A DNA stretch of 64,000 nt from Alphaproteobacteria bacterium. Lineage in GTDB: Bacteria > Pseudomonadota > Alphaproteobacteria > VGEJ01. A program made the position numbers and the translations under genes. The notes beneath the pieces were generated by a model. It was given only the letters and a program-made list of their open reading frames with translations, made no database searches and was not told the DNA's origin. The DNA is taken from positions 1 through 64,000 of the forward strand of contig CBDDBU010000021.1 in assembly GCA_965226045.1 (NCBI GenBank). Direction: 5' to 3'. Within the stretch, counting starts at the first letter, position 1. Each line of letters opens with the position of its first letter. Of this stretch, positions 22,715 through 43,709 are shown one piece after another.

Positions 22715-22848
22715 CCTACGCCCCTGATCATAAACCATCGCGGCATGATGACATATGGCGCGATACGATCGGGCGGGCGCGACGGTCATTTGGCATCGGG
22801 GTGGCCGCAAGCTAACTTCGCGCGAGTTGTGGTTGCGCCGGGCACGGT

Positions 22849-24525: not shown

Positions 24526-24532
24526 GCGGAAG

Positions 24533-26096: not shown

Positions 26097-26370
26097 AGAA
26101 AACAGAGGGAGAATCTCATGCGGGTCAAACAAAATGATACCACCAAGACCACCCAGCGGACCGCGATCAGTCGCCGGCGCCTGATGGGCACGACGGCCGC
26201 CGTGGCGGCCGCCGGCGCGATCACGGGCTTCCCAGAAAACAGAGGGAGAATCTCATGCGGGTCAAACAAAATGATACCACCAAGACCACCCAGCGGACCG
26301 CGATCAGTCGCCGGCGCCTGATGGGCACGACGGCCGCCGTGGCGGCCGCCGGCGCGATCACGGGCTTCCC
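26097..26370. repeat. Perfect 137-bp tandem duplication covering the RBS, start codon and signal-peptide N-terminus of the ABC substrate-binding-protein gene
   Basis: Units 26097..26233 and 26234..26370 are identical. 137 is not a multiple of 3, so the first start (26118) reads into a frameshifted 67-aa ORF while the second start (26255) heads the intact gene. Confidence 0.85.
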
Positions 26371-27541
26371 CAACATCGTGCGCGCCGCCGAGGATGTGCG
26401 GACCATCGGACTCGGGGTCAGCATCATCAACGAAATCCAGAGCCAGGCCTCCGAGGATCTGGGGTTCGGCGTGCGCGGTCAGGCGCTCGGTTACGGCGCC
26501 ATGTTCGGCAAAATGCTCAACCAGAACGACCAGTACGAGGTCGCCGAAGGCTACTTCAACGATATGGACGTGTTCATCCCGTCCAAGGTCTGGCAGCCGA
26601 TCGACACTCAGCGGATCACGGAGTGGGAGAACGTCACGAATCTCTCGAAGACGGGCCGGCTCACGCCCGACTCCAACCCCGGCCAGGGCGATGCGCCGTT
26701 CCGTCAATTGTGGCTCGACGAGAATGGAGACCGGGTCGAGGGGCCGTCACGCTACGTCTCGATGGTTCCCGGGTGGCACAACGCCGATTCCATCGGCTAC
26801 AACCCGGACGAGACCGGCCGCAAGATCGAGAGCTGGGCCGAACTGTTCAGCGACGATTTCAGGGGCCAGGTGGCGCTCCTGAACGTGCCTCAGATCGGTG
26901 TCATGGATGCCGCCTTGGGCGTCGAGGCGTTGGGTCTCCTGACCTTCAAGGACAAGGGCAACATGACCAAGCAGGAGATCGATTTCCTGATGGATTTCCT
27001 GATCGAGAAGAAAAAGGCCGGGCATTTCCGGGCCTTCTGGGAGACCTTTGGCCAGTCGGTGAACCTGATGGTCAGCGGCGAGGTCGCACTGGAAAGCATG
27101 TGGTCGCCGGCGGTGACCGCCATCAAGGCCGAGGGCGTGCGGTGCGTCTATGCCTTCCCCAAGGAGGGCATGCGCGGCTGGCACGGTGGTTGCGCCATCT
27201 CGGCCAAGGCCACCGGCAAGGCGCTCGACCAGGCCTACGAGTACATCAACTGGTGGCTGAGCGGTTGGCCCGGTGCGTTCGTGGCCCGTCAGGGTTATTA
27301 CATGTCAGTGCCCGAGAACGTGCGGAAGCATCTCGAGCCGGAGGAATGGGACTACTGGTACGACGGGAAAGCCGCCGCCAGGGAACTGCCCGATCCGTTC
27401 GGCAACATCATCGTGCCCGAAGGCGAAGTCAGGGACGGCGGATCCTATTGGGATCGCTTCAAGAACATCGCCGTGTGGAACTCGTTGATGGACGAGAATG
27501 ATTATCTGGTGAAGCGCTGGACGGAGTTCTTGACCGCCTGA
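26255..27541 (+). CDS. ABC transporter periplasmic substrate-binding protein (PotD/PotF-like), Tat signal
   Basis: 428 aa. RRRLMGTTAAVAAAGA twin-arginine signal. Polyamine/opine-type SBP fold. Confidence 0.8.
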   Translation: MRVKQNDTTKTTQRTAISRRRLMGTTAAVAAAGAITGFPNIVRAAEDVRTIGLGVSIINEIQSQASEDLGFGVRGQALGYGAMFGKMLNQNDQYEVAEGYFNDMDVFIPSKVWQPIDTQRITEWENVTNLSKTGRLTPDSNPGQGDAPFRQLWLDENGDRVEGPSRYVSMVPGWHNADSIGYNPDETGRKIESWAELFSDDFRGQVALLNVPQIGVMDAALGVEALGLLTFKDKGNMTKQEIDFLMDFLIEKKKAGHFRAFWETFGQSVNLMVSGEVALESMWSPAVTAIKAEGVRCVYAFPKEGMRGWHGGCAISAKATGKALDQAYEYINWWLSGWPGAFVARQGYYMSVPENVRKHLEPEEWDYWYDGKAAARELPDPFGNIIVPEGEVRDGGSYWDRFKNIAVWNSLMDENDYLVKRWTEFLTA

Positions 27542-27588
27542 TCGCGACGCGCTTCGCCCTCTCCGGTCGGAGGGACGGCCGCGATCAA

Positions 27589-27622
27589 CCCCCTCCCCTT
27601 CGTGGTCGGGCCGGGGGAGGGG
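27589..27622. repeat. REP-like hairpin (CCCCTCCCC ... GGGGAGGGG); possible terminator-like stem-loop after the SBP gene
   Basis: 9-bp G/C stem, 15-nt loop, no T-tract. The same stem motif recurs at 50933..50971. Confidence 0.5.
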
Positions 27623-27722
27623 TGAGCCGCTGCGCCTTGTGGATAGCGGCCGTTGTCCACGATTCACCCCCACCCCGGCCCTCCCCCGTCGACGGGGATG
27701 AGGCGCGTCGACGTCGTGATCG

Positions 27723-28703
27723 ATGACTGAGTCCGTCCAGCACCCCGGCCTGATTGGTGGTCAGCTCCGCGCGCCGACGGTTGTCGTCTCGGCCGCGGCC
27801 GAGAAGATTCGACGCCGACCTGGCTTCTCGACGGGCTGGTTGATAGCGCCCGCGAGCCTGTGGCTGCTGGTGTTCCTGGTAGTTCCCCTGGTCAGCATCG
27901 CGGGTTTCAGTCTGTGGACGGCCGCCGACCAAGGCGTTTCGGCCGGGTTGACGCTCGAATACTATGCGGCGTTCTTCGAGGAGGAGGGGTTCTTCGATCC
28001 CGCCTCCTCGAAGTTCCTCACCCCAAGCGTGTTCGTCAGGACATTGTTCACCACCTTCATTTTCACCCTCGAGGTGATGGCGCTGTGCCTGCTGGTGGGC
28101 TACCCGATCGCCTACTTCCTGGCCATGCAAGTGCAGTCGTTCAAATGGCAAATGGCTCTGTTCCTTGTGGCGCTGGTGCCGTTCTGGACCAGCTACCTGA
28201 TTCGGGCGGTGGCTTGGCTGCCGATGCTGGGACGGCGCGGACTGCTGAATAAGGCGCTGGTCAGCTTGGACATCGTCGACAAGCCAGCAAGCTTTCTGCT
28301 GTATTCCGAGTTCGGCTACACGATGGCTCTGGTTCAGCTCTACGTGGTGCTGTCCGTCGGACCGATCTTCTTTTCCTTGGCCAAGATCGATCGCTCGATC
28401 CTGGAAGCCGCCCGCGACATGGGCGCCTCGCCATTCAACGTCTTCAGGGAGATCATCCTTCCGCTTTCGCTGCCGGGCGTTGCCATCGGCATGATCTTCA
28501 TTTTCGTCATGATCATGGGGGAATTCGCGACCGCGGTCGTGGTCTATGGCGGCAAGACGTCGACCACGGGAACTGTCATCCTCAACTACTATGCCATCGC
28601 CAACTACCCGTTCGCGGCGGTCAACGCGGTCATGCTGATGTTGGCGATGATGATCGGGGTGGTGATCATCTTGCGCGTCGTCGACATTCGCAAGGAGCTT
28701 TGA
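27723..28703 (+). CDS. ABC transporter permease (PotB-like)
   Basis: 326 aa, 6 TM segments, EAA-like loop (ILEAARDMGASPFNVFREIILPLSLPG). Confidence 0.8.
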   Translation: MTESVQHPGLIGGQLRAPTVVVSAAAEKIRRRPGFSTGWLIAPASLWLLVFLVVPLVSIAGFSLWTAADQGVSAGLTLEYYAAFFEEEGFFDPASSKFLTPSVFVRTLFTTFIFTLEVMALCLLVGYPIAYFLAMQVQSFKWQMALFLVALVPFWTSYLIRAVAWLPMLGRRGLLNKALVSLDIVDKPASFLLYSEFGYTMALVQLYVVLSVGPIFFSLAKIDRSILEAARDMGASPFNVFREIILPLSLPGVAIGMIFIFVMIMGEFATAVVVYGGKTSTTGTVILNYYAIANYPFAAVNAVMLMLAMMIGVVIILRVVDIRKEL

Positions 28704-28704
28704 G

Positions 28705-29532
28705 GTGGCGCGCTGGTCCCGAGCGAGGCGGCGGCGAGCCGGTGTGAAGGCCGGCTTCAGCATCTATTACGCGATCTTCCTGGTGTTCATCTTCGGACCG
28801 ATGATCGCCATGTTCGTCCTCTCGTTCCAAGGCCAGCGAGGGGGCACCAGCTTCCCCATGCGGGGGTTCAGCTTCTACTGGTGGGGAAAACTGTTCGAAC
28901 CATCGGCGGTGGGCGATCTGCAGGGCGCCATGTTTCGCTCGCTCATTCTGGCGCTGATCGTGATGGTCATCACCGCGCTCTTCGCGACCATGCTGGCGAT
29001 GGCCTTTCGCAAGCGCTTCTTTGCTTCGGGTGTGCTGTTCTACACGATCATGGCCGGCCTCATGGCGCCCGGGATTCTGCTCAGTCTCGGCCTCGCCACG
29101 TTGCTGCGCGAACTCAACATCTCGCCGGCATGGTGGTCGTCTGGGCTTGGTGTCCACGTCGTGTGGACCTTGCCGTTCGGGTTCCTCGTGATGATGGCCG
29201 TCTTCAATCGCTTCGACGCCAGCCTCGAGGAGGCGGCGCGGGACATGGGGGCCGACGAGTGGACCGTCTTCAAGGAAGTGACCTTGCCGCTGATCGGCCC
29301 GGGGATAGCGGCCGCCGGCCTGTTCGGGTTTACGTTGTCCTACGATGAGTTCGCCCGCACCACCCTCCTGGCCGGCGAGTACAACACGCTGCCGCTCGAC
29401 ATCAACGCCTCGATGACTCAGCGCATCCGCCCCACGCTGTTTGCGCTAGGCACCGCGTCGACGCTGTTCTCGCTCGCCATGATCGGTCTGTTCGTGGTGA
29501 TTTACACCGTGCTCTACCGGCGCCTCCGCTGA
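28705..29532 (+). CDS. ABC transporter permease (PotC-like)
   Basis: 275 aa. EAA loop LEEAARDMGADEWTVFKEVTLPLIGPG. Confidence 0.8.
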   Translation: MARWSRARRRRAGVKAGFSIYYAIFLVFIFGPMIAMFVLSFQGQRGGTSFPMRGFSFYWWGKLFEPSAVGDLQGAMFRSLILALIVMVITALFATMLAMAFRKRFFASGVLFYTIMAGLMAPGILLSLGLATLLRELNISPAWWSSGLGVHVVWTLPFGFLVMMAVFNRFDASLEEAARDMGADEWTVFKEVTLPLIGPGIAAAGLFGFTLSYDEFARTTLLAGEYNTLPLDINASMTQRIRPTLFALGTASTLFSLAMIGLFVVIYTVLYRRLR

Positions 29533-29535: not shown

Positions 29536-30621
29536 CTATCGATCGAGCAACACGCCCGCCTCGGCCGGCCAACAGATCGTCTCCGGTTCGCCCATCTCGT
29601 AGAGGCGATCCGAGATGTTGCGGTGCTGCTCCACGCGCACGAACAGGCCGGATGAGATTTCGAACACATCGGTTTCCAGCGAGCCCCTGAACTCGGTGGT
29701 GATGTAGCGGCCCTCGACCCGATTGGCCATCCCCGGTTGCTCGCCGGTATGCATGGAATCGGCCCGGACCGAGAAAGACGCCTCCTCGCCGACGCGCACG
29801 CGACGGACGCGCTCAGGCACCCGGACATAGAACAAATTGTCGGCGGATTCGACGAACACCATCGAGCCGCTGCGCGATTTGATGGTGCCGTTGAGCAGGT
29901 TGTTGTTGCCGATGAACTCGGCCACGAACTTGGTGCGCGGATCGTTGTAGATCTCGCGCGATGTGCCCGTCTGCTGGATCACCGCGTCGCTCATGACGAT
30001 GACCTTGTCGGCCATCGACATCGCCTCCTCCTGGGAATGGGTGACCATGATGAAGGTGATGCCGAGTTCGCGCTGAATCTTTTTGAGCTCGACGATCATG
30101 GATTGGCGCAGGTTGTAGTCGAGCGAACCCAGCGGCTCGTCCAGCAACAACACCGTGGGTCTACTGATCAATGCTCTGGCCAACGCCACACGCTGCTGCT
30201 GTCCGCCGCTGAGATCGCTCGGCCGCCGGCCGGCCAATTCGGTCAGCCCGACCATCTCCAGCATATCCGCCACCCGCCCGGCTCGTTCCTCCTTGGACCG
30301 CCCCTGCATCTTGAGGCTGAATTCGACGTTCGCCGCGACGGTGCGGTGAGGGAACAGCGCGAAGCTCTGGAACATCATCGAGGTGTCGCGCTGGGACGGG
30401 GGGAGGTCGGTCACGTCCCGTCCCGCGACATGAATCGTGCCGGAGGTGACCTCGTCCAGGCCGCCGATCATCCGCAACGTCGTCGTCTTGCCGCAGCCGC
30501 TGGGGCCGAGCAGGGCCACCAACTCTCCGTGCTCGATCTCGGCATCGAAATCGATCACGGCCCGGACGCCGCCAGCGAAGGTCTTGTTGACCTGGCGCAA
30601 GACAACGTCGTACTCGGGCAT
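29536..30621 (-). CDS. ABC transporter ATP-binding protein (PotA-like, C-terminal TOBE domain)
   Basis: 361 aa. Walker A GPSGCGKTT, signature LSGGQQQRVALARAL, Walker B LLLDEP. Confidence 0.85.
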   Translation of the reverse strand: MPEYDVVLRQVNKTFAGGVRAVIDFDAEIEHGELVALLGPSGCGKTTTLRMIGGLDEVTSGTIHVAGRDVTDLPPSQRDTSMMFQSFALFPHRTVAANVEFSLKMQGRSKEERAGRVADMLEMVGLTELAGRRPSDLSGGQQQRVALARALISRPTVLLLDEPLGSLDYNLRQSMIVELKKIQRELGITFIMVTHSQEEAMSMADKVIVMSDAVIQQTGTSREIYNDPRTKFVAEFIGNNNLLNGTIKSRSGSMVFVESADNLFYVRVPERVRRVRVGEEASFSVRADSMHTGEQPGMANRVEGRYITTEFRGSLETDVFEISSGLFVRVEQHRNISDRLYEMGEPETICWPAEAGVLLDR

Positions 30622-30646: not shown

Positions 30647-33064
30647 CTAAGTCGTGGCCCGCGCCATGGCCTCTATCAGGCTCCAGACATTCTCGAAGGT
30701 GACGTCTGCGAACTCGCCCCGCTCGCTTAGGTCCCTCAAAAGACGCACCGCCTGAACCATCGCTTCGTCGGCGCCCGCGGCGTCTGTCAATATCGTGACC
30801 GCCTCGGCCAGCGGAACCTCCCGTGCCTCGCGCGTGCCTAGGGTCTCGCCCACGAGCGCGGCGAGTTGCTCATAGGCGCGCCGAATCGACGCGGGGTCGT
30901 CGTCGGACCGACCAAAGACGCCGCGCACACCGTTGGCCGCGAAGCGACGGCGCAGGCCCTCGGGCATCGACTGTGCGAGCCCCTCCAAGACCTCGCCGAG
31001 GCCGAAGCCGGTGGTGAACATGCCGCGGACGGTGTCCATGGTGCCGTCGCCGCCGCCGTACATGCGGATTTGGGCGTTCTGTAAGGCGTTACCCATGGCC
31101 TTGGCCTGGTCGATATGGACGTCGCGCTCGGCCTCGATATAGAGTTTCGAGAGTTCCAGGAAAGTAGCCGCCTCGTTGTATTTCTTGAGCGCCACCGCCT
31201 TGGCCTCTAGTCCGGTGGCCTCGGCCGCCAGCCGTCGTTGATCGTTCGCGACCCGAAGCGCATCAACCTCCATTTCCGCGCGGCCCGCAGCGCCCGCTTC
31301 ACGCTCGATGCCTTCGGCGCTGATCTTCTGGGCATCGCTGAGGGCGTGCGCCCGGACCCGCGTCGCCTCCGCCTCGAGCGCCGCCGCCTGGCGCCGGGCC
31401 TCGGCCTGGCTCACCATGTGCATGCTCGTGATTTCGGCTTTTCTCTCCTCTTCGATGCCCTGCCGCTCGGCCAGCTTCTCCGCATCGATGCGCTCGATCT
31501 CCTTGTCGCGCACGGCATTCGCTAGGGGGCGCACCGACTCCATGTCGTGCTCGGCGCGCTCGCGCTCGGCCGTGGTCTCAAGGCGCTTGGCCGCGACCTC
31601 TTCAAGCTCGCGGGTCTTCTCGACCAACACGATCTCGCGATCGCGCTCCTCCACCTCGCGCGCTAGAAAGCGATGAATGTCGACCCTCTCGCGCTCTTGT
31701 TCCTTGGCGATGAGCGCGATCTCGCGCTCCCGCTGCTCGAGTTCGACCGCCAGGATCTGGCGCAACTCGGCGCGGCGCAACGCCTCCTCCTTAGCGATCT
31801 CCTCGGCCTGAACCTCCCAGCGCTGCTGCAGCACATACCGCTGCTGCTCGCTCAAAATCCGCGCCTTTTCGTTGGAAATCTCCTGCTCCTGGCGGGCCGC
31901 CGCCACGGCCTCTTCCTTGTCGGTATCCAGCGTCGCGAGCTTGGTCGCGAGCTGACGCTGATGCATCGCCAGCGTCACCGTTTCGGTCGCCTTGTGGCGC
32001 TGGTTGCGCGCCTCCTCCTCGTCGGTGGCGATAGCGGTGGCCCGCTTGATCTCCGCCAGTTCCCGCTCTTTTTCCTTCTCGATGAGCGTGATTTCCTTGT
32101 CCTTGCGCTCCTGCTCCAAGGCCAGAGATCGATGAATTTCGCTGGCCTCGCGTTTCTGCGCCTCTTCCGTGAGAGATACCTCCCGCTCGGTCCGCTGACG
32201 CTCGAGCGCCACCTCGTTGGTGAGTTCCTGCTCCTCGACGGCGCGTCGCTGGTTGAGTACGAAGATCTGCTTCTCGCGGACGTGGAGGGCTTGGTCGTTC
32301 GAGACCGACTTGTCCTGATCGGCGCGCGCGAAGGCTTCCTGCCGCTCGATCTCGAGCAGCTCAAGCTGGGTGTCCAATTCTTTCTGGCGAATGGCGACCG
32401 AGGTCCGCTTCTCGGTATCGTGCACCACCCGGCGCGCGTTGGACGTGATCTCGGTGATGATCTTGAGACCCTCGGCGTCGAACACGTTCTCGGCCTTGAA
32501 GTACTCCTTGCCCGTCTGTTCAAGGGTGACGATCGTGACCTCTTCGAGGACCAGGCCATTGGCGCTGAAGCCTTCGACCGCATTGGCCTTGATCGCCTGG
32601 GCGAAGATGTCGCGGTTCTCATGCAGCTCGCTCAGGGTTTTGGTGGCGGCGTAGCTGCGTAACGCGCTGACTACCTTGGCCTCGAGCAGGTTGCGGATCT
32701 GCTCGGCATCGAAGGTTTTGTCGCCGAGGCTGCGGCTTGCCGTCAGCAGATGGTCGACGGTGTGGCCGACGTGGGTGTAGAGCTCGGCGACGACATCGAC
32801 GCGAATCTTGTCGGCCGTCAGGATCGCCTGATCGCGCGATCGGCTGACGATCAGCTTGATCGTCTCAAGCGATACCCAGGTGATCTCGTGGAAGACGGGG
32901 AGAACGATCACGCCCTGGCCTAGGCACACCTTCGTGCCCAGAAAGCCGGTGCGGATGAACCCCATGTTGGCGGGGGCTCGTTTGTAGACCCAGATCGAGA
33001 GGATATAGATGATCGCGGCAACAATGATCGCGATGACAAAAACAATGATCACATTTTCGACCAT
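30647..33064 (-). CDS. Flotillin-family protein (SPFH/Band-7 domain plus very long E/A/R-rich coiled coil), YqiK-like
   Basis: 805 aa. N-terminal TM helix and SPFH domain (GFIRTGFLGTKVCLGQGVIVLPVFHEI ...), then ~450 aa of heptad-like EA-repeat coiled coil and a C-terminal flotillin-type tail. Confidence 0.75.
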   Translation of the reverse strand: MVENVIIVFVIAIIVAAIIYILSIWVYKRAPANMGFIRTGFLGTKVCLGQGVIVLPVFHEITWVSLETIKLIVSRSRDQAILTADKIRVDVVAELYTHVGHTVDHLLTASRSLGDKTFDAEQIRNLLEAKVVSALRSYAATKTLSELHENRDIFAQAIKANAVEGFSANGLVLEEVTIVTLEQTGKEYFKAENVFDAEGLKIITEITSNARRVVHDTEKRTSVAIRQKELDTQLELLEIERQEAFARADQDKSVSNDQALHVREKQIFVLNQRRAVEEQELTNEVALERQRTEREVSLTEEAQKREASEIHRSLALEQERKDKEITLIEKEKERELAEIKRATAIATDEEEARNQRHKATETVTLAMHQRQLATKLATLDTDKEEAVAAARQEQEISNEKARILSEQQRYVLQQRWEVQAEEIAKEEALRRAELRQILAVELEQREREIALIAKEQERERVDIHRFLAREVEERDREIVLVEKTRELEEVAAKRLETTAERERAEHDMESVRPLANAVRDKEIERIDAEKLAERQGIEEERKAEITSMHMVSQAEARRQAAALEAEATRVRAHALSDAQKISAEGIEREAGAAGRAEMEVDALRVANDQRRLAAEATGLEAKAVALKKYNEAATFLELSKLYIEAERDVHIDQAKAMGNALQNAQIRMYGGGDGTMDTVRGMFTTGFGLGEVLEGLAQSMPEGLRRRFAANGVRGVFGRSDDDPASIRRAYEQLAALVGETLGTREAREVPLAEAVTILTDAAGADEAMVQAVRLLRDLSERGEFADVTFENVWSLIEAMARATT

Positions 33065-33143: not shown

Positions 33144-35444
33144 TCAAACCCCCAGCCACGCCCCGTTCGCCGATCGACGCTCCCCGAAATCGAAGACCGG
33201 GAGGTCCTTGCGCTCGCGCTTTAGGTTCTTGCGTCGTTCTTGGGTCGCCCTCTGATCAACCTGCACAGGCGTGCCGACCACGACCACGCCATAGGCGTTG
33301 CTTGCCACGTCCGCTGTCATCAGCTTCCGCGCCACATCGTTGCGCACCCGCGACGGGTCGCGCTCCAGGGCGTCGCCCCAGCCCCCGCCGCCGGCGGTGC
33401 GAAAGACGATACGATCGCCGCGCCCGACTTTGACGTTGTCGATCTTCGAGGGCAGGGACTCGCGACCACCGTCGGCTCGCTCCAGCCATTTTGATGAGCA
33501 CGCGCCGGGCCTGCCGCCGAGAATCCCCCAGGGCTGGGTGAGGTGCCGATCATCGTGGATCGATATCTCGCCCGCCTCGAGAAGCAAGTAGACCTTCTCC
33601 ACGCCATTGCCCCCGCGATGCTTGCCGGCGCCACCGGTGTCGGCGACGCTGCCATAGCGCTCGATGATCATCGGATAGTAGCTCTCAAGGTACTCGGTGG
33701 GGATGTTCTCGAACAGCGGCCACCACGAGTGACCATCCAGGCCATCGCCGATCGGGCGACCGGGAATGCCGCCATAGAGAATCTCCATCAACTGGAAGCC
33801 GCGCCCATCGCGGTCCACGCCCGAGTAGAGGAAATGCGGGCTTGAGCCATAACCTGCGGCCGTCGCCATCTCGGGCGCATTGCGGCTAAGCGCGCCGCCC
33901 AGCACATCGAACTGCCGCGACAGGGCGTGGGTGCGACCGCCGAGCGCCGCCGGGAAGGTCGGGTGGACCAGCGAACCCTCCGGCATGGTGACGTGGATGA
34001 GGTCGTAGAAGCCATCGTTGAAGAGAATCTGGGGGTCGAACACCATGATCATGTAGACCCCGATGAACATCTTGAACATGCCCTCGTGGAGATAGAAGTT
34101 GATCGGCCCCGGCGATTGCGGCGCGGTGCCGGTCCAATCGAAGTAGGCGTGCTCGCCCTCGCGCCACACGGTGAGCTTCATCTTGAAGGGACCATTGCCG
34201 AGGCCGTCGTCGTCGACATAGTCCTCGAACGACTGCGGCTCCTCCGGCAAGTTCTGGACGATGAGTTGGCGCATGGCGCGGTTGGTCCGTTCCAGCAAGG
34301 CCTCGCAGGCCTGCCTGTAGGTCTCCTTGCCGAACCGCTCGCAAATCTCGATTACCCGTTTTTCGCCGGCCCGGCTGCCGGCGATGATTGCCATCAGGTC
34401 GCTGTAGTTCATTTCGGGCGTGCGCGTGTTGTTCATGATCAAGTCGATCGCCGACTTGTTGAGTTCTCCGCGCTCGTAGATCTTGATCGGCGGGATCTTC
34501 AGACCCTCGCCAAAAATCGAGGTAGCGGCGGTCGGCATGCTGCCTGGCACCGGGCCGCCGACATCCATCACGTGGCCGAACATCGAGCTGAAGCCGACCA
34601 TCTCCCCGTCGTGGAAGATCGGCACCAGCACCATCCAGTCATTGATGTGGCTGATCGCCCCGCCGCATTTGTAGGGATCGCTCTGTAGAATTACATCGCC
34701 GGGATAGAGTTCGAAGTTCTGGGCTGCCAGCATCTCCGTGACATAGGAGCCGAACTGGCCGACGATCATCCGGCCCTTGGCGTCGGTGATCATGGGGAAC
34801 TCGTCATGCTGCTCGCGAATGACCGGCGACATGGCCGAGCGAAACAGCACCGCGTCCATCTCGTGGCGGGCGTTGCGCAGCGCGTTCTCGACCAGATCCA
34901 GCGTGATCGTGTCGAGCCGCCCGCGCGACGCGCGCTCCGTGCGCGACGGCTCTGGCAGGGGCGAGGCCGCCCCGCGCCCACCGCTGCTAGACGGCTGAGG
35001 CGGCTCATCTTGTTCGCGGGCCGCCGCCCCGGAGCCGAACAATTCGGCGCAATGCGCCAGCGCGTCGGCGGTCGCGCGGCGCAGCGCCGCACCTTCGTCG
35101 CCGTTGACCCGGGCCGAGCCGAACTGCGATTTCGTCACGCCGTCAACCTCGAGTTTGCAGAGCACGGTGACCATACCGTTCTCGGTCTTACGATTGACCA
35201 CCTCCGAGGACCAGCCGGGGCCGAACCGGGCATTGAGCGACGCCCCCACATCGCCGTCGCGTTCAGCGCTCATGACGTCCACGCTCGCAGACGCCAAGTC
35301 CTCGCGCGTTGCGGGCCGATGAGTGACGCCGAGCAGGCCGAAGTCGCGCTTCTGAGCATCGAGAATCTTGTCGAACTGCTGCTTGTTCGTCTTCATCAGG
35401 TCGTCGAGCGACAGGCTTTGGAAACGCGGGTTCAGGTCCGACAT
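33144..35444 (-). CDS. Hydantoinase B / oxoprolinase-family subunit (HyuB-like) with ~175-aa N-terminal extension carrying Rad52/Sak-like motifs
   Basis: 766 aa. The HyuB core starts near LDTITLDLVENALRNARHEMDAVLFRS, with no in-frame start codon in front of it. The N-terminal extension contains NARFGPGWSSEVV and ALRRATADALAHCAELFG, resembling the Rad52/Sak N-domain motifs (FGY.GW...; EAVSDALKRCAKAFG). Starts 13 nt after the hyuA stop. Confidence 0.75.
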   Translation of the reverse strand: MSDLNPRFQSLSLDDLMKTNKQQFDKILDAQKRDFGLLGVTHRPATREDLASASVDVMSAERDGDVGASLNARFGPGWSSEVVNRKTENGMVTVLCKLEVDGVTKSQFGSARVNGDEGAALRRATADALAHCAELFGSGAAAREQDEPPQPSSSGGRGAASPLPEPSRTERASRGRLDTITLDLVENALRNARHEMDAVLFRSAMSPVIREQHDEFPMITDAKGRMIVGQFGSYVTEMLAAQNFELYPGDVILQSDPYKCGGAISHINDWMVLVPIFHDGEMVGFSSMFGHVMDVGGPVPGSMPTAATSIFGEGLKIPPIKIYERGELNKSAIDLIMNNTRTPEMNYSDLMAIIAGSRAGEKRVIEICERFGKETYRQACEALLERTNRAMRQLIVQNLPEEPQSFEDYVDDDGLGNGPFKMKLTVWREGEHAYFDWTGTAPQSPGPINFYLHEGMFKMFIGVYMIMVFDPQILFNDGFYDLIHVTMPEGSLVHPTFPAALGGRTHALSRQFDVLGGALSRNAPEMATAAGYGSSPHFLYSGVDRDGRGFQLMEILYGGIPGRPIGDGLDGHSWWPLFENIPTEYLESYYPMIIERYGSVADTGGAGKHRGGNGVEKVYLLLEAGEISIHDDRHLTQPWGILGGRPGACSSKWLERADGGRESLPSKIDNVKVGRGDRIVFRTAGGGGWGDALERDPSRVRNDVARKLMTADVASNAYGVVVVGTPVQVDQRATQERRKNLKRERKDLPVFDFGERRSANGAWLGV

Positions 35445-35457: not shown

Positions 35458-37536
35458 TCACGGTCCGCTCGAGCCGCCCGATCGGGCGCCGCCCTGGGGG
35501 TAGATCAAGATGTTCAAGTACTCGTCGACGTCACCCACATGATCGGGATGAATGACGGTTGTCGTATCGTCTTGCAGGATCACCGCTGGGCCGAGCACAC
35601 GGTGGCCCGCGACCAGAAGGGTCCGATCGTAGATATTGGCGGTTAGGAAGTTGCCGTCGAAATAGACGCGATGCTGTTCGACCACGGCGGCGGACGCGTC
35701 CGGGCCGCCCTTCTCGAAGCTCGGGAAGCTAACCTTGGCCACTTGGCCGGTGCCGACCGCCCGCAGGTTAACGAGCTCGACGGGCGCATTCACCTTGAAG
35801 CCATAGAGACGCTCGTGGGCGGCGCCGAAGCGGCTTTCGATATCGCTCAGGCCACCGTTGCCGAGGGCGTCGGGATTGACGTCGAGGGAGAACTCGTAGC
35901 CTTGGCGGAAGTAGCGCACGTCGACTTGATAGTGCAGCTCCTGGCGCCCGTCGTCGATACCTTCTTCCTGCAGCCAAGCCCTCGCATCTCGTCCCAGTTC
36001 CGTCAGAATCTGATTCACCTGGGCCGCCCCGGCGTCCTCGATGTTGCGAATGAAGGTCCGGGCAAACTCGTTCTTGACATCAGAGTAGAGGAAACCGAGC
36101 GCCGACAGCACGCCCGGCGTCGGCGGGATGATGACTGGAAAGCAGTCGGCCAAGCGGCCCACGGCGTTGCCATGCAACGGGCCCGCGCCGCCAAACGCCA
36201 CCAGCACGAAGTCGCGCGGATCGAGCCCCTTTTGCACTGTCACCAGTCGCAAGGCGCCCAACATGTTCTCGTTGACGATGTCGAGAATACCCTGAGCGGC
36301 CGCGTGGACATCCAAACCGAGCGCGTCGCCGATCTTGGCGATGGCGGCCTCGGCCGCGCCGGCGTCGAGGGCCATCTCGCCGCCGAGCAGGCTGGGCGGT
36401 AGGTGGCCCAGCACCACGTTCGCGTCGGTCACCGTCGGCAATTCGCCGCCCCGGCCGTAACACGCCGGCCCCGGCACGGCGCCCGCGCTTTCCGGCCCCA
36501 CGCGCAACGCGCCGGTCATCGGCACATGGGCGATGGAGCCGCCGCCCGCGCCAACGCTGTGCACCTCGACCGAGGGCACCTTGACCGGATAGTAGCCGAG
36601 CGAGGTCTGCCGCGAGATGGTCGGCTTGCCCTCCTGGATCAACGACACGTCGGTGGACGTGCCGCCCATGTCGAAGCCGAGCGCTTGTGGGTATCCCGCC
36701 AGTGAGGCAATAAAAGCGGCGCCCGAAACTCCGCCCGCCGGCCCCGACAGCATAGTGAGTACCGGAAAATCGCTGGCCCTCTGGACGCTCATGAGTCCGC
36801 CGTCGGAGCGCACGATGTTGACGTGGGGAGAGAACTGAATCTCGCGCAATCGGTTCTCGATGCCGTGTAGATACCGGCGCACGCTGGGCCGCACATAGGC
36901 GTTCATCACCGCCACCAGCGTGCGCTCGTATTCGCGGAACTCGGGCAGGATTTCGGAGGACAACGAAACGGTCATGTCGGCGTCGAGCTCGCCCACGAGA
37001 TCCTTCAGCCGCTCTTCGTGGAGCGAATTGGCGTAGGAGTGGAGGAGCGAAACGGTGATCGCCTCGGCCCCCAGGTCGATCAGTTCGCGGATCGCTGCCC
37101 GCGCATGCTCCTCGTCCAGCGGCGTCATGATCTCGCCACGCGCGGTGACGCGCTCGCGAACGCCACGGGTCAACTCCAAGTCGGCCATCAGCTCGGGCTT
37201 GATCATGGTGATCCAGCCCGCCAACGGGCCCGGGGTCTGGGATCGCGCCAGGTGCAGAACTTGTTCGAAATTCTCGGTCACCAGAAGTCCGACCTTCGCG
37301 CCCTTGCCTTCCAAGACGATATTGGTCGAGACCGTTGTGCCGTGGAGAAGCGCCCGAATGTCCGCCGGCGCGACGCCCGATTCGGCGACGATCTTGTTGA
37401 TGCCGGTAAGTATACCGACCGATTGGTCGTGGGGGGTTGACGGCGTCTTCAGCAGGCGCAGGGCGCCGGTATTCTCGTCGAACAGCAGCAAGTCCGTAAA
37501 CGTGCCACCGACATCGACGCCGAGGCGGCGGCTCAT
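35458..37536 (-). CDS. Hydantoinase A / oxoprolinase-family subunit (HyuA-like; acetone-carboxylase beta-like)
   Basis: Start set at MSRRLGVDVGGTFTD (ASKHA-fold ATPase N-terminus). About 692 aa. Confidence 0.85.
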   Translation of the reverse strand: MSRRLGVDVGGTFTDLLLFDENTGALRLLKTPSTPHDQSVGILTGINKIVAESGVAPADIRALLHGTTVSTNIVLEGKGAKVGLLVTENFEQVLHLARSQTPGPLAGWITMIKPELMADLELTRGVRERVTARGEIMTPLDEEHARAAIRELIDLGAEAITVSLLHSYANSLHEERLKDLVGELDADMTVSLSSEILPEFREYERTLVAVMNAYVRPSVRRYLHGIENRLREIQFSPHVNIVRSDGGLMSVQRASDFPVLTMLSGPAGGVSGAAFIASLAGYPQALGFDMGGTSTDVSLIQEGKPTISRQTSLGYYPVKVPSVEVHSVGAGGGSIAHVPMTGALRVGPESAGAVPGPACYGRGGELPTVTDANVVLGHLPPSLLGGEMALDAGAAEAAIAKIGDALGLDVHAAAQGILDIVNENMLGALRLVTVQKGLDPRDFVLVAFGGAGPLHGNAVGRLADCFPVIIPPTPGVLSALGFLYSDVKNEFARTFIRNIEDAGAAQVNQILTELGRDARAWLQEEGIDDGRQELHYQVDVRYFRQGYEFSLDVNPDALGNGGLSDIESRFGAAHERLYGFKVNAPVELVNLRAVGTGQVAKVSFPSFEKGGPDASAAVVEQHRVYFDGNFLTANIYDRTLLVAGHRVLGPAVILQDDTTTVIHPDHVGDVDEYLNILIYPQGGARSGGSSGP

Positions 37537-37671
37537 GACCCCTTTAGTCCCCCGACCCAGCGGTGCGCACCTCGCTCGCGGCGCTCGGAACTCCCGCCTA
37601 AACTGGTTGTCGTCATCCCTGGCTTTGGTATATTGCCCAATGCCTCGCCGCTGCCCATACCCGCTCTGATC

Positions 37672-38199
37672 ATGGCACAAGAAACCGTTGGCCCGCGCAA
37701 ACCCCGATTCTTCATCGTTGGCGTGGGGATCATTATACTATTGGTGTTTCTCTATTTTTACCGACCATTTGAAGATTACTTTACACAAGGCATTCGGGAC
37801 GTTGATTCATCCAATATAGTTTTCTGGTCTGCTTCTCTGGTGGGCATACTCGCCTACATGATCTCTCATTGGCGGTCCTTCCGCCACAACATCTTTCGCG
37901 ATGTCACCAACCTCGACATCGAGACGCTGGTCTTCGACACGCTACAGATCGCCATCCTGGTCGCCGTCATCTTCTGCGCCGGCGCGATCCTGCAGGAAAT
38001 CGAGATGCTGGCCGAGCATCTGATCGAACGCGGAACCATCGTAGGGCCGGTGTTCGGCGGCGGACTGCTCTCGATCATACTTCTGTTTATTCTTGCGGTC
38101 GCGTTCTATCTCCTGCATCGCATGGTGCGCGGCTTTCGGGTGGGCTGGCGTCCCGGCCGGCCGCGGCCGAGATCGCGGTCGACCGCCCGCCTGCCCTAG
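37672..38199 (+). CDS. Small membrane protein, hypothetical (paralog of 24061..24525)
   Basis: Start set at [19 protein letters not shown] / FLFYYEPFEELF and HWRSFR / HWRAYR are conserved between the two paralogs. Confidence 0.5.
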
Positions 38200-39302
38200 C
38201 CGGCGGCGGCGGTCGACCGCGCGGGACCGCCGACGAACGGTTGGCGCTTGATGAAGTCGTCGGCGATCTCGTCGAAGGTGTGCCAGCGCACGCCGGAGTG
38301 GCTCGAGATGTACTCGATCATCCGCTCGATCATCAGCAACACCTGGGGCCGGCCCGAGATGTCGGGGTGGATGGTCAGGGTGAACACCGCGTAGTCCATC
38401 TCGCGGTAGACCCAGTCGAACTGATCGCGCCACCACTCCTCGATATCGCGCGGGTTCACCCAGCCGTGGCTGTTGGGCACGTTCTTCATGAACATCAGCG
38501 GCGGCAGGTCGTCGAGGTACCAGCTGGCCGGGATCTGCACGATCGGCACGGTGGTGCCGAGCTCCATCGGCTTCATCCAGGTGTGGGCCGGCTTGCCGTA
38601 GTCGATCAGCGTCCATGACTCGCCGACCCGGGTCCAGAACGGTGTGAAGTCGTTGTGCATCTGGCTGTGGTCGTACTTGATGCCGCGCTCGAGCAAGAGC
38701 TGTGGCGTCGCCAGGCTCATCTCCCACCACGGCGCGACGTTGCCGCTGGGCGTGCGGCCCGAGATTTTCTCGATCAGCTCGATGCCCTTGTCGAGGATCA
38801 CAGCCTCCTGGTCGGGCGTCATCTGCACCGGGTTCTCGTGGGTGTAGCCGTGCAGGCCAATCTCGTGCCCCTCGTCGGCCACCCGCGTCATGATGTCGGG
38901 CCAGGTCTCGATAGTATGACCGGGGATGAACCAACTGGTGCGCAGGTCCACGCGCTTCAGCATATCCAACATGCGCGGCGTGCCGATCTCGGCCGAAAAC
39001 ACGCCGCGGCCGATGTCGCTGGGCGAATCGCCACCGCCATAGGAGCCGATCTGCCCGGCCACCGCATCAACGTCGATGCCGATGGCGCACAGAATGTCCT
39101 TCTTGCCGCCGCCTGACGCCGAGCGTGCCGTCGCTCCCGCACTGGTCCCGGGCAGGCTCGATCCCGCGCCGGTTTCCCGCGCCGCGGCCGCCGACGCACC
39201 GATCGGACGCGGACTGTAGCGCGGCCCGATGCCGCCGCCGGGCGCCACGGCATCGGATCGCCCCGGATGTCCACGGAACCCAGAATCAGAACGATCGCTC
39301 AT
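38196..39302 (-). CDS. Polysaccharide-deacetylase-family (NodB-fold) amidohydrolase
   Basis: 368 aa. Deacetylase-type DVD and His motifs. The N-terminal ~60 aa is low-complexity, so the true start is uncertain. Confidence 0.65.
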
Positions 39303-39482
39303 GACGATACCCTTCCCTGCCGGTCAATTCATTTTCAGGCAAGCCGCACTCGGCTCGATCTCTCGTCTTCTGATACAACCCACTCCACGGCCGATCAACT
39401 GGGCCGCGTTGATCGGCCAGGGACCAGGCGCTATCGTGACGGGGCGCTATCGTCGTCAATGAGAGCTGGCTCGGAGGCCGAG

Positions 39483-40214
39483 ATGAGCGATTGGCGACAA
39501 GACACACGCGAGGACTACCAGCGCAAGGGCCTTGGCGTGCGCGCGGGCTATGGGGCCAAACCAGTCCTCTTGCTGGTCGATTTCATCAATGGATTCACCG
39601 ACCCCAGCACGCCGCTGGGCGGCGATCTCACGGGCCAGATCGCGGCGACCAAGAGGCTGCTGGCCGAATGCCGCGCCCAGGGCCAAACCATCGTCTACAC
39701 GACCATCGCGTACGCGCCGGATCTGCGCGACGCCGGGATGTGGATCAAGAAGATTCCTTCTCTGGAGATTCTGACAAAAGGATCACCGATGGTCGAGATC
39801 GATGAGCGCGTTCGTCCCCGCCGCGGCGAACGCGTGGTCGAAAAGAAGTTCGCGAGCGCGTTCTTTGGTACCTATCTCGACGCCTATTTGCGCGGTCTTG
39901 GCATCGACACCGTCATCATGACGGGCTGCACCACCAGCGGCTGCATCCGCGCCTCGGCGGTGGACTCGATCCAGTACGGCTACTACACGGTCGTGGTCGG
40001 AGACGCTGTCGGCGACAGAGCGAAGGGCCCGCACGACGCGAATCTGTTCGATATCGAGGCCAAATACGGCGATGTGGTCTCCAGCCACGAGGTGCTAACG
40101 TACCTCCGATCGCTCGAAGGCACGGACGGTCTTGCTGGCCAGGCCAACGTTGATTTCCGGCGCTGGTGGGGTGCGGAATCGCCGCCGGCCGAGGATCGGC
40201 GCCGTGGGGCATAA
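39483..40214 (+). CDS. Isochorismatase-family cysteine hydrolase, second paralog
   Basis: Start at MSDWRQD. Motifs LLLVDFINGF and MTGCTTSGCIRAS, collinear with 22073..22714. Confidence 0.7.
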   Translation: MSDWRQDTREDYQRKGLGVRAGYGAKPVLLLVDFINGFTDPSTPLGGDLTGQIAATKRLLAECRAQGQTIVYTTIAYAPDLRDAGMWIKKIPSLEILTKGSPMVEIDERVRPRRGERVVEKKFASAFFGTYLDAYLRGLGIDTVIMTGCTTSGCIRASAVDSIQYGYYTVVVGDAVGDRAKGPHDANLFDIEAKYGDVVSSHEVLTYLRSLEGTDGLAGQANVDFRRWWGAESPPAEDRRRGA

Positions 40215-40263
40215 CGACGGAGCGCCCAACGAGGCCGGGAGGCTCTCGGCGCGATTCGACGAG

Positions 40264-40722
40264 ATGTTGGAGACCAGTCGGCGCGACCTGGACGCGCTCT
40301 ATCGCGACGAAAACGGCAAGCCGTCGAGGCTCGTGCTATCTCGCGCGGCTCGATCGGCCCATACATCATCCTCGGAGCGGGCCGTCAGCGGCTTCGATCC
40401 AAGATCAACCCCGACCGCACGCGTCCTCGACGATTGGTTCGGCGGTCGCTGGCGCTTTGAGATCACCGACCGCCGCCACGATGGCGACGAGGTGGTGGTG
40501 AGCGGGCGCGTCGTGGTCGAGAATCAAGGCATCGAAATGTCGGGCACCGGACGCGCCGCCGTTGCCACCGGAAACGCGGCGATCGAAGGAACGACGGCGG
40601 GTGTCGTCTTCAGGGTCAAGCCCACGCACGCTATGGCGCGCGACAGCGTTGGCGGCCCGGAAGACTCCGCTTTCCGCCAGGCCGCCGCCGTGGCGCTCGC
40701 GCGTTGCGCGCAACTCCCGTAG
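40264..40722 (+). CDS. Hypothetical protein, paralogous to the N-terminal extension of the HyuB-like protein (weak Rad52-like motifs)
   Basis: Start at MLETSRR. WFGGRWRFEI ... EDSAFRQAAAVALARCAQL parallels the HyuB N-terminal FGPGWSSEV ... EGAALRRATADALAHCAEL. Strong GC3 bias. Confidence 0.4.
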   Translation: MLETSRRDLDALYRDENGKPSRLVLSRAARSAHTSSSERAVSGFDPRSTPTARVLDDWFGGRWRFEITDRRHDGDEVVVSGRVVVENQGIEMSGTGRAAVATGNAAIEGTTAGVVFRVKPTHAMARDSVGGPEDSAFRQAAAVALARCAQLP

Positions 40723-41246: not shown

Positions 41247-42725
41247 CTAACAGCCCGTTGACGAAGTCTTCCCTGGACGAAGTCGGCATGGTCTGATTCT
41301 CTGGTGTCCTGGCCTGAAGGGGGGTTCGCTGATGGCGATGGGACAGCAGAAGGATCGTCAGGGGGACTTGATGGTGAGCTGGTCGGAGATGCCGCGCTCG
41401 CCAGGTCATGTATTTTACGACCGCCTGCAGTTGGTACTGATCGAGGGCGGCTTCGACGGCTTCGCCGAGGCGGTCTGCCAGCCCTATTACGCGGCCAGGA
41501 TGGGGGCGCCTTCGGTGCCACCCGGGCGCTACTTCCGTATGCACCTGGTGGGCTACTTCGAGGGTATCGACTCTGAGCGTGGGCTGGAGTGGCGCTGCTC
41601 GGATTCCCTGTCGCTACGGGAGTTCCTGCTGTTGGAGATGCGGGAACGGGTGCCGGACCATTCCTGGCTGTCACGGACCCGCGCGCGCCTGCCCCATGAA
41701 GTCCACACGGCGGTGTTTGACTGGGTCCTGGCGCTGATCGCCGAGGCGGGTCTGGTGAAGGGCGAGCGCATCGGGGTGGATGCCTCGACCATGGAGGCCA
41801 ACGCGGCGCTGCGCAACATCGTGCGGAGGGACACGGGCGAGGGTTACCGGGGGATGCTGGAGCGCTTGGCCCAGGAGAGCGGTATCGAGACACCCACGGC
41901 TGAGGACCTGGCGCGTCTGGACCGCAAGCGCAAGGGCAAGAAGCTCTCGAACCAGGACTGGGTTTCCAGGAGCGACCCCGAGGCCAAGATCGCCAAGATG
42001 AAGGACGGCACCACGCACCTGGCCTACAAGCCCGAGCACGCGGTGGATCTGGACACCGGCGCGGTGGTGGCGGCGGAGCTGCACCCGGCCGACGAGGGCG
42101 ATACGACAACGCTTCCCAAGACCCTGGCGGCGGCCGAGGCAAACCTCGAGGCGGTGGATGTGGCGCCGACGGCCGAAGATCCGGCCGAATGTGTGACCGA
42201 TAAGGGCTACCACTCACGGTTGGTCTTGAAGGCGCTCGACGACGGCCCCTGGAAGAGCCGGATCTCCGAGCCCAAGCAGAAGGGTTTTGCGCGCTGGCAC
42301 GGAGATGATGCGGCTCGCCGGGCGGTCACCAACAACCGGACCCGGCTGTTATCGGGGGTGGCCAGGGAAGCCTTCAAGCTGCGCGCCGAGATCGTCGAGC
42401 GCTCCTTTGCCCACAACCTCGATCGCGGCGGTATGCGCCGGACCTGGCTTCGGGGCCGCGAGAACGTGCACAAGCGATACCTGCTTCACGTCGCCGGCCA
42501 CAACCTATCGTTGCTGATGCGCCAACTCATCGGCGCCGGCACCCCGAAGGAGGCCGTGGCGGGCGGAATTGGCGCCTTGTTCGTGCTTGTTACGCCCGCT
42601 GGAGCCGTCCTGGTCGTTCAGATCGTCCTCATCGTCTCGGAGGATGGCGAAACCGCCTTCGCCGCGATATGCTTCGCCGTGGCGTGAAACCCGGTCAATG
42701 ACGCCTTTTTCAACGGGCTGCTAAG
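41247..42725 (+). mobile_element. IS5/IS1182-family insertion sequence (~1.48 kb)
   Basis: Inverted repeats CTAACAGCCCGTTGACG and CAACGGGCTGCTAAG. Single 451-aa DDE transposase. Confidence 0.75.
41332..42687 (+). CDS. IS5/IS1182-family DDE transposase
   Basis: 451 aa. Conserved N-region (GRYFRMHLVGYFEGIDSERGLEWRCSDSLSLREFL) and C-terminal DDE_Tnp_1-like region (VTDKGYHS ... ERSFAHNLDRGGMRRTWLRGRENV). Confidence 0.8.
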   Translation: MAMGQQKDRQGDLMVSWSEMPRSPGHVFYDRLQLVLIEGGFDGFAEAVCQPYYAARMGAPSVPPGRYFRMHLVGYFEGIDSERGLEWRCSDSLSLREFLLLEMRERVPDHSWLSRTRARLPHEVHTAVFDWVLALIAEAGLVKGERIGVDASTMEANAALRNIVRRDTGEGYRGMLERLAQESGIETPTAEDLARLDRKRKGKKLSNQDWVSRSDPEAKIAKMKDGTTHLAYKPEHAVDLDTGAVVAAELHPADEGDTTTLPKTLAAAEANLEAVDVAPTAEDPAECVTDKGYHSRLVLKALDDGPWKSRISEPKQKGFARWHGDDAARRAVTNNRTRLLSGVAREAFKLRAEIVERSFAHNLDRGGMRRTWLRGRENVHKRYLLHVAGHNLSLLMRQLIGAGTPKEAVAGGIGALFVLVTPAGAVLVVQIVLIVSEDGETAFAAICFAVA

Positions 42726-42734: not shown

Positions 42735-43709
42735 CTAGAAATGGCGGTCGAATGAGCCGTTCCACTGGGCGTAGATGCTCCCCAGCTGGTCCACCACCCG
42801 CATCACCGCGTCGATGGGAATCCCGTCATCGCCGATGAAGTTGGGGTCCATGGTGCCACCGTCCAGGCACCCTAACGCCACCACTCCCTCGACCAGCTTC
42901 TTGACAGTCTTCCCATCGACCATCAGATCGCGATTGCTCGTCCCTAAGGCGAGCGCCGTGGCCACGCCGTAAGCGCCGTAGTTGGAGACCGCAGCGGAAA
43001 ACAGGTGCTTGGTCGCCGTGGTGGTGGCGGTGCCGCCGCCGCAGGGGCAGCCGCACTCGGCGCCGAACAACACGATCTCCCGGACCTTGTCGTGGATCTT
43101 GCCGAAGCCGATCTCGTTGCCGCCATCGCCGATGCCGACCGTCAACTTGCCCTTGTCGTTCATCGCCTCGATGAAATCGTCGATGTAGTAATCGCCGGTC
43201 TTGGCGAGCGGCGTCCCCATCACCGAGTGGCGGATTCCTTCCCGGTTGCGACCCAGCTTCTCGATGGTGACGGCGATGTCGTAGTGATCGGCCCATGCCA
43301 TGAGCTCCTCGGGCGCGCGATCGGTGGTGTGGACAATATTGCCCTCGAATCCGAGCGTGTCGATAAGGCTGCTCACCACATCGTGCATGTCCCTCTCGAC
43401 CATGATATCGACGTTGTGACCGAGCAGGCTCAGCGCCCGTCCCAGCACGGCGGCGCCGATCGGGCCATCCACCTCCCCCTTGGGCAGGTGGCCCTCAAGG
43501 ACGATGCCGGTGACCATGGCCACGTTAGCGTTCTGCATTCCTAAGATGGCCTGGGAAATATCGTAGGTGACCGGGTTCTCACCGCGCGCAAGCTCGTACA
43601 GCGGGCGAATGAAGCCCTGCAGCATGTTGTGCGGGCGCATTTCGGTGGTCAGCAGCAGCTCCAGGTTTTCATAGGGCGAGCGGGGATCGACGTTCATTTC
43701 CTTGGCCAC
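42735..43709 (-). CDS. Hypothetical protein (possible DUF4392 / cyclase-like), orphaned between IS elements
   Basis: 324 aa, strong GC3 bias. Motifs GIGDGGNEIGFGKI and CGCPCGGG. Family assignment is from memory only. Confidence 0.35.
   Translation of the reverse strand: MAKEMNVDPRSPYENLELLLTTEMRPHNMLQGFIRPLYELARGENPVTYDISQAILGMQNANVAMVTGIVLEGHLPKGEVDGPIGAAVLGRALSLLGHNVDIMVERDMHDVVSSLIDTLGFEGNIVHTTDRAPEELMAWADHYDIAVTIEKLGRNREGIRHSVMGTPLAKTGDYYIDDFIEAMNDKGKLTVGIGDGGNEIGFGKIHDKVREIVLFGAECGCPCGGGTATTTATKHLFSAAVSNYGAYGVATALALGTSNRDLMVDGKTVKKLVEGVVALGCLDGGTMDPNFIGDDGIPIDAVMRVVDQLGSIYAQWNGSFDRHF

Follow-up and report, generated by a model that had tools for sequence, protein, structure and literature searches.

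The fused hyuB gene described here lies on the minus strand of a 64,000-nucleotide stretch of alphaproteobacterial DNA (the window; contig CBDDBU010000021.1 of assembly GCA_965226045.1), and encodes a hydantoinase B-type (HyuB) catalytic subunit whose N-terminal part contains a minimal protein core of the Rad52/Rad22 type (Table 1). We hold with high confidence that the fusion is native and conserved, and that its HyuB portion is preceded in turn by a helix, a disordered loop, the minimal Rad52/Rad22 core and a hypervariable linker. From the agreement of sequence profiles, the core is established as a true homologue of the Rad52/Rad22/Sak family. Its task in a hydantoinase is a matter of interpretation: we put at roughly 45% the probability that it is a co-opted module for protein self-assembly or tethering, and not a recombinase, by a mechanism that we can only propose.

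The gene begins 13 nt after the stop codon of hyuA, and an AGAGGA Shine-Dalgarno-like motif lies within this short gap. No ATG, GTG or TTG occurs in frame in codons 136-195 of the open reading frame (ORF), implying that the conserved N-terminus of HyuB (LDTITLDLVENALRNARHE) could not be started separately, and the GC content of third codon positions (GC3) is 0.82-0.84 across all four segments of the ORF. The first-pass annotation of this DNA, made from the sequence, had thus correctly placed the ORF 13 nt after hyuA (leaving its strand, minus, unstated), had seen no in-frame start ahead of a HyuB core that it located from about residue 176 (the Pfam Hydantoinase_B match begins at 178), and had recognised a coding-type GC3 bias in the extension.

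Could an error of sequencing, assembly or gene calling have joined a separate small gene to hyuB? Some database records give that appearance. Residues 1-176, used as a query, have only 19 close relatives (52-62% identity), mostly annotated as separate proteins of 108-217 residues, and in two long-read metagenome contigs (L001 and L002) a small 'gene' is placed between hyuA and a shortened hyuB. In L001, however, the hyuB frame is open far upstream of its called start and encodes the conserved RRLDTVSLDLIENALRNARHE, so that one indel in the GC-rich linker accounts for the split. The loci with junction breaks also have a broken hyuA, cobW or Band_7 gene, which points to general indel noise. Comparison across assemblies gives the answer. 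In 27 of 31 related genome loci, all of them from metagenome-assembled genomes (MAGs) labelled Xanthobacteraceae or Alphaproteobacteria, the N-terminal domain and the start of HyuB share a reading frame (25 are uninterrupted ORFs of 747-774 residues), and the five short-read assemblies (L006, L009, L020, L027 and L029) all belong to this in-frame group. Five further representatives (P0036, P0043, P0056, P0066 and P0067), of 752-779 residues and with less than 50% mutual identity, are divergent versions of the same fusion; one belongs to a cluster named '5-oxoprolinase [Woeseia sp.]', from a gammaproteobacterium, and the others come from Tara Oceans and other metagenomes. Taken with the lack of a start codon for a separate HyuB in the window, this comparison refutes an artefactual joining, the probability of which we consider almost negligible, and bears out the original proposal of a genuine fusion.

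The 'standalone' database entries of 108-217 residues (P0001-P0014) are, in our assessment, frameshift artefacts. Long-read MAGs that split the gene at its GC-rich linker give rise to a systematic annotation error, with spurious small proteins and truncated HyuB sequences now public. The long-read MAG loci L001/L016, L002, L008, L023 and L032 show such frameshifts, both in the linker, with its 81% GC, and in hyuA, cobW and Band_7.

The region ahead of HyuB was modelled with AlphaFold2 (AF2) as a monomer, using the alignment of orthologues. In these models the core comprises a helix (residues 64-77), three strands (78-88, 91-100 and 103-112) and a long second helix (117-136), and the predicted disordered loop before it occupies the position of the β-hairpin that stacks against single-stranded DNA (ssDNA) in Rad52 proteins. 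Mean identity to orthologues is 69% for the core and 78% for HyuB, compared with 21% for the linker, implying that the core is under purifying selection. The N-terminal helix is marked by the invariant residues D15, L16, K18, N20, K21, Q22, Q23, F24 and D25, and a hidden Markov model (HMM) of its motif (sLDDLLkaNkqQFD) matches, within each gene cluster, only HyuB and the standalone paralogue described below. Searched directly, residues 1-175 have no match in Pfam (E<=1), PHROGs or NCBIfam, and none at E<=10 among PDB sequences by phmmer; tblastn with the N-terminal domain against plasmid and phage collections gave zero matches.

Relationship to Rad52 emerges from profile comparisons. An HMM of the N-terminal domain, run against 1.84 billion representative sequences, gave 294 matches, and those outside its own family are proteins of 175-250 residues that match at profile positions ~62-138 with E values of 1e-10 to 1e-6. 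All ten such proteins that were tested exceed the gathering threshold of the Pfam family Rad52_Rad22 (PF04098). Aligned by hhalign against a profile of 27 of these proteins, the N-terminal domain scores a probability of 99.7% and an E value of 4.1e-26, with 40% consensus identity over 78 columns; the profile of those Rad52-like proteins matches the PDB entries for yeast Rad52 (E 1.7e-9) and human RAD52 (E 3e-8). Both motifs that the first-pass annotation had likened to Rad52/Sak are present: NARFGPGWSSEVV (residues 71-83) and EGAALRRATADALAHCAELFG (residues 117-137). Column for column, they align with the Pfam-validated Rad52-like proteins and with residues 76-88 and 139-159 of human RAD52, the first marking the passage from helix to strand (F-G-x-x-W) in the Rad52 fold and the second its long helix. 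The signature columns shared with the Rad52/Rad22 family are L-N-x-x-F-G-x-x-W and G..A.L..A....AL..CA..FG.

Fold comparison agrees with this assignment. The best structural matches of the core are RAD52, Mgm101 and yeast Rad52, and in a library of viral structures the top match is a phage 'Rad52/59/22' protein. Besides eukaryotic Rad52 and Rad59 and the bacterial and phage Rad52-like proteins, PF04098 is taken to include Deinococcus DdrA and phage Sak, and Mgm101 has a Pfam family of its own, PF06420. Of the five elements that make up the Rad52 fold, the sheet, the helix crossing it and a second helix are universal, and the hairpin and first helix are variable (PMC9870868); the core has a three-stranded antiparallel sheet preceded by one helix and crossed by another, long one, and these correspond to elements i-iii of that scheme.

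A convergent or chance likeness, in which the core would be a generic α-β-β-β-α domain resembling the double-stranded RNA-binding domain (dsRBD), might be argued from the failure of PF04098 to match either the window protein (E<=1) or any of 15 fused N-terminal domains (E<=10), and from the lack of a significant PDB match for the domain profile, the best being AcrIF5 at E 0.29. This explanation is effectively refuted, however, by the hhalign alignment to Pfam-validated Rad52_Rad22 proteins and the hmmsearch E values down to 1e-10, together with direct, if weak and sub-threshold, matches of two of six standalone paralogues to PF04098 (best E 0.0072), and we judge it very improbable. The Rad52/Sak likeness first suggested from the motifs is thereby upheld as homology. 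What the motifs could not show is that only a minimal core of ~75 residues is present, with no stacking hairpin and with a degenerate basic groove.

The loss of DNA-contacting features can be followed residue by residue. The bases of ssDNA are sandwiched in human RAD52 by a hairpin (residues 52-66, including R55 and V63), and K152, R153 and R156 contact the phosphate backbone (PMC6137706). No equivalent hairpin was found here: the homologous match starts at residue 62, and residues 35-63 are predicted to be disordered and strandless. The equivalent of K152 is basic in 27/27 bona fide Rad52-like proteins and is A130 in the window protein; this position is basic in 0/41 standalone paralogues and in 1/5 divergent fusions. 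That of R153, basic in 26/27 bona fide proteins, is H131, and that of R156, which is mostly Ser or Thr in the bona fide proteins (basic in 3/27), is E134. The equivalent of human K144, basic in 27/27, is R122. A fourth arginine, which precedes L-N-E-A-F in 26/27 bona fide proteins, is lost in the fused forms. Judged from these alignments, the canonical DNA site of the core is degenerate. Given a minimal core with no hairpin and a degenerate groove, in a catabolic and transport setting, DNA annealing is not the default expectation for this protein.

The same core is found in other arrangements. The window itself encodes a standalone paralogue, on the opposite strand, with the same N-terminal helix motif, disordered loop and Rad52-type core; this core carries an extra hairpin insert, and the protein, whose start codon is uncertain, ends just past the long helix. 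Genome loci that reach far enough upstream yield two matches to the domain HMM, the fused copy and one on the opposite strand (L038 has a third). The metagenome loci were scanned for standalone paralogues with a narrower alignment, that of distant paralogues being too divergent, and in each of the five that include upstream sequence an isochorismatase homologue comes immediately before the standalone gene. In L037 the two modules are apart: its HyuB (714 residues; 1-1604, minus strand) retains the N-terminal helix, followed by ~90 residues of low-complexity linker, but lacks the Rad52 core, and the cluster includes a 141-residue standalone core protein (P0077) beside the isochorismatase. The Rad52-type core and HyuB have also been joined independently the other way round: in the third HyuB paralogue of L038 (21211-22289, minus strand) and in P0168, a low-complexity linker leads from HyuB to a C-terminal core, and the N-terminal helix motif is missing. 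A marine metagenome protein of 287 residues (P0094, from L048) combines a hydrophobic N-terminus, a hairpin-less Rad52-like core and a Cds6_C NTF2-like domain; it is another possible non-recombination use of a Rad52-like core, on a contig of only 1 kb.

Table 1. Segments of the fused hyuB gene and its neighbours in the window (TM, transmembrane; SBP, substrate-binding protein; pLDDT, predicted local distance difference test score).
Feature	Residues	Positions	Strand	Basis or remarks
Whole fused ORF (766 aa)		33144..35444	-	ATG start; N-terminal helix, disordered loop, Rad52-type core, disordered linker, HyuB
N-terminal helix motif (sLDDLmKtNKQQFDkIl)	9-36	35337..35420	-	AF2 helix 13-36
Ala/Ser-rich loop, predicted disordered	37-63	35256..35336	-	pLDDT <50 for 35-63
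Minimal Rad52-family core	64-137	35034..35255	-	AF2, pLDDT 83-90
Linker, Pro/Ala/Ser/Arg-rich, hypervariable, flexible, 81% GC	138-175	34920..35033	-	Orthologue identity
Hydantoinase_B/oxoprolinase catalytic subunit	176-766	33144..34919	-	Pfam
hyuA (Hydant_A_N, Hydantoinase_A, Hydant_A_C)		35458..37680	-	Pfam; adjoins fused hyuB
Flotillin-like SPFH/Band_7 protein (805 aa)		30647..33064	-	Directly downstream of fused hyuB
ABC importer ATPase (ABC_tran + TOBE_2)		29536..30621	-	Last gene of the hyuA/hyuB/Band_7/ABC unit
Permease and SBP genes		26255-29532		Convergent
Small multi-TM membrane protein		37633..38199	+	No Pfam match; divergent from hyuA
Isochorismatase-family amidase		39267..40214	+	Weakly BiuH/RutB-like; directly precedes standalone paralogue
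Standalone paralogue of HyuB N-terminal domain		40132..40722	+	Same N-terminal helix motif, disordered loop and Rad52-type core

The enzyme portion of the fusion matches its family over the full length. The match to Pfam Hydantoinase_B (PF02538) spans residues 178-691 (E 2.2e-149) and profile positions 1-518 of 519, and the closest solved relatives are an N-methylhydantoinase (7hk5_A, E 4e-76) and a hydantoinase (6yra_B). It reaches no NCBIfam equivalog cutoff: the best match, caprolactamase beta, scores 241.6 bits against a required 1000, and ApcD scores 127 bits against 1500. As for the hyuA gene beside it, the mechanically called ORF begins at a TTG, and alignment with orthologues marks the ATG at 37539 (MSRRLGVDVGG...) as the probable true start. 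The first-pass annotation had offered, as a fallback, that the extension might be a module of acetone-carboxylase-like alpha subunits. This did not survive comparison with the solved structures: the acetone carboxylase alpha chain 5m45_A and the chain 5svb_A align at window residues 227-656 to their own residues 111-563, and the acetophenone carboxylase delta chain 5l9w_A aligns at window residues 214-650 to its own 65-518, in each case with the HyuB core only. An origin of the extension as the N-terminal segment of such carboxylases is accordingly rejected.

The genes around fused hyuB form a conserved unit. Every sufficiently long locus, whether from soil, marine or Tara samples, has the order small multi-TM protein (divergent from hyuA), hyuA, fused hyuB, Band_7 and ABC ATPase, accompanied by convergent permease and SBP genes; the small membrane protein gene is kept in every locus that extends upstream of hyuA, and the Band_7 gene lies between fused hyuB and the ABC ATPase in every locus that reaches that far, encoding proteins of 805-945 residues. 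The flotillin-like protein of the window has an N-terminal TM segment, an SPFH domain, a very long coiled coil rich in Glu, Ala and Arg, and a C-terminal globular part. Other genes often found nearby encode a polysaccharide-deacetylase-family protein (weakly PuuE-like), CobW, an AhpC-like protein and amidohydrolases. Neither recombination nor phage genes turned up among the ORFs scanned around fused hyuB. The cluster looks like one for the uptake and breakdown of a cyclic amide or ureide.

Parts of this neighbourhood recur elsewhere. The window contains a second paralogous gene set, at 22073-25948, which includes an isochorismatase (22073-22981, minus strand) and an Amidohydro_1 enzyme (24533-25948, minus strand), and a second copy of the small multi-TM protein, again with no Pfam match, at 24061-24525 on the plus strand. 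Beside this small membrane protein is a 348-residue protein with no Pfam match (22849-23895, plus strand); L038 and L039 likewise have a ~350-residue protein paired with the small membrane protein, in L038 directly next to the third HyuB. In L035, a homologue of the small multi-TM protein stands directly ahead of a standalone Rad52-like gene. After the standalone paralogue of the window come two transposase genes, one of the DUF772/DDE_Tnp_1 type (41332-42687, plus strand) and one of the rve integrase type (44224-45453, minus strand), and the window is without the cobW gene and second hyuA paralogue that normally follow the standalone gene in its relatives, possibly as a result of insertion sequence activity. 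A D-glutamate cyclase-like protein (GLUCM-like_C) is encoded at 42735-43709 on the minus strand; its 5-oxo-D-proline chemistry connects it with the oxoprolinases of the HyuAB family.

What, then, might a Rad52-type core contribute to a hydantoinase? We favour self-assembly or tethering, because the core retains the sheet and the long helix packed on it, the pair said to set the curvature of Rad52-superfamily multimers, and has lost the stacking hairpin and the basic groove residues. Its attachment points the same way, since the linkers are disordered and hypervariable and the core may sit at either end of HyuB or on a separate protein. We envisage that the fused cores and the standalone paralogue would multimerise into a single scaffold from which several HyuA/HyuB enzymes would hang on flexible tethers, with the N-terminal helix that the two proteins share serving as a putative docking element. 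Such an assembly would probably lie beside the flotillin-like membrane scaffold and the ABC importer, with which it appears to be co-transcribed, so that import, ATP-dependent ring opening by HyuAB and a follow-up amidase step could be held close together for a substrate that may be a cyclic amide or ureide. The fully developed form of this proposal, in which the Rad52 fold makes a ring or filament scaffold that does not bind DNA, tethers HyuAB enzymes and joins them with the flotillin-like protein and the importer in a catabolic metabolon, is tentative and on balance somewhat unlikely to be right in all its parts.

Several observations weigh against the self-assembly proposal. HyuAB enzymes are normally described as small heterotetramers, with which a Rad52-like 11-mer would be mismatched in symmetry. 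The putative link to the flotillin-like protein comes from gene order, and at two loci (L047 and L040) the surrounding 9-10 kb contain no standalone paralogue. The surface of the core also gives pause. R73 and R123 are Arg in 31/32 fused sequences and are never basic in bona fide family members, and K97, the equivalent of the outer DNA-site residue K102 of human RAD52, is Lys in 32/32 fused sequences; because these residues are conserved within the family, an anion-binding surface, possibly for nucleic acid, may have been re-created. Core net charge fails to discriminate the fused family from true Rad52-like proteins, and the hairpin is absent or altered in some genuine annealing proteins also, such as Rad59 and Sak (PMC9870868).

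These surface features lead directly to the idea that the domain has kept the ability to bind single-stranded DNA or RNA, which might serve, for example, to autoregulate the operon in the manner of PutA or to hold the enzyme at the nucleoid or at its own mRNA. We regard this, the main rival, as unlikely. In its favour are true homology with ssDNA-annealing proteins, the persistence of family-specific basic residues (K105 and R112 as well as R73, K97 and R123), a conserved five-gene unit that includes no dedicated transcription regulator, and further top fold neighbours (dsRBD, uS5 and HPF) that are themselves nucleic-acid binders. Against it stand the missing base-stacking hairpin and an inner-groove trio that is A, H and E in the window protein and is not conserved across the family. 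Moreover, binding of the Rad52 type lacks sequence specificity and would thus be a poor basis for operator recognition, and a quick, cursory alignment of the region upstream of hyuA showed no obvious conserved palindrome and served only to bear out the hyuA start given above. The independent N- and C-terminal fusions through long linkers suit a tether better than a regulator.

A role within the enzyme itself, as a ligand-binding or allosteric module or as a lid or chaperone for the active site of HyuB or HyuA, much like certain small α/β regulatory domains of other enzymes, seems to us decidedly improbable. It would be in keeping with the co-evolution of the domain with HyuB at a similar rate and with its constant association with HyuB paralogues. 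An integrated allosteric domain, however, would not be expected on disordered, hypervariable linkers of 40-90 residues, nor at either terminus or as a separate protein; the sequence homology is with Rad52 and not with ACT or other regulatory families; and the solved HyuB-type relatives that were retrieved, comprising N-methylhydantoinase, hydantoinase and the acetophenone and acetone carboxylase subunits, have no counterpart of residues 1-175.

Neither the fold nor the enzyme is new. What appears to be undescribed is the way the two are combined, the recurrence of that combination, and the conserved operon around it. In the literature that we searched, no paper pairs Rad52 with hydantoinase, or flotillin with hydantoinase, and a flotillin-like gene between hyuB and an ABC ATPase is not mentioned; databases name the fused proteins only as hydantoinase B or 5-oxoprolinase. 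Domains of the Rad52 superfamily are known as DNA-annealing machines of recombination, repair and phage replication, and here a family of metabolic enzymes has repeatedly captured a minimal Rad52 core, fused to either end or encoded as a separate partner; its carriers are soil and marine Alpha- and Gammaproteobacteria. Were the scaffold proposal correct, a multimerising DNA-binding fold would have been recycled for enzyme clustering, offering a compact natural tag for enzyme assemblies and, if no DNA is bound, the first role of the Rad52 fold that does not involve nucleic acid. Were nucleic acid bound after all, a catabolic enzyme would be linked directly to DNA or RNA. Either way, the conserved module of small membrane protein, hyuA, Rad52-type::hyuB, flotillin-like protein and ABC ATPase presents a candidate client for bacterial flotillin-like proteins.

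Two known systems offer analogies. PutA, like the fused HyuB, is a catabolic enzyme with an N-terminal domain of a DNA-binding fold, and in both cases the context suggests association with the membrane. The PutA domain is a ribbon-helix-helix that binds its operator sequence-specifically, whereas that of HyuB is of the Rad52 type, non-specific in sequence, with degenerate DNA contacts and no known operator. Cargo enzymes of bacterial microcompartments bear terminal targeting or encapsulation helices on disordered linkers, and the short, conserved, amphipathic-looking N-terminal helix of the fused HyuB, with its poorly conserved linker and its presence on more than one protein of the cluster, recalls these, although the helix could equally correspond to helix α1 of Rad52. 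Unlike in such compartments, no gene for a shell protein or an encapsulin turned up among the ORFs scanned, and the only candidate scaffold nearby is the flotillin-like SPFH protein.

With HyuB, N-methylhydantoinase B, 5-oxoprolinase and caprolactamase beta, the fused protein shares a full-length Hydantoinase_B domain and a hyuA gene immediately upstream; unlike the known HyuB systems, it is apparently transcribed together with a flotillin-like protein and an ABC ATPase. From the Rad52/Rad22 annealing proteins it differs more sharply. Their annealing domain of ~180 residues is reduced to ~75, with no C-terminal partner-binding region; where human RAD52 has its hairpin (52-66) there is a disordered loop, conservation of the K152/R153 pair is lost and the residue at R156 is acidic, and new arginines, R73 and R123, are specific to the family. 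Finally, this core is joined to, or encoded beside, a metabolic enzyme in an operon for catabolism and transport, and not alongside recombination or phage genes.

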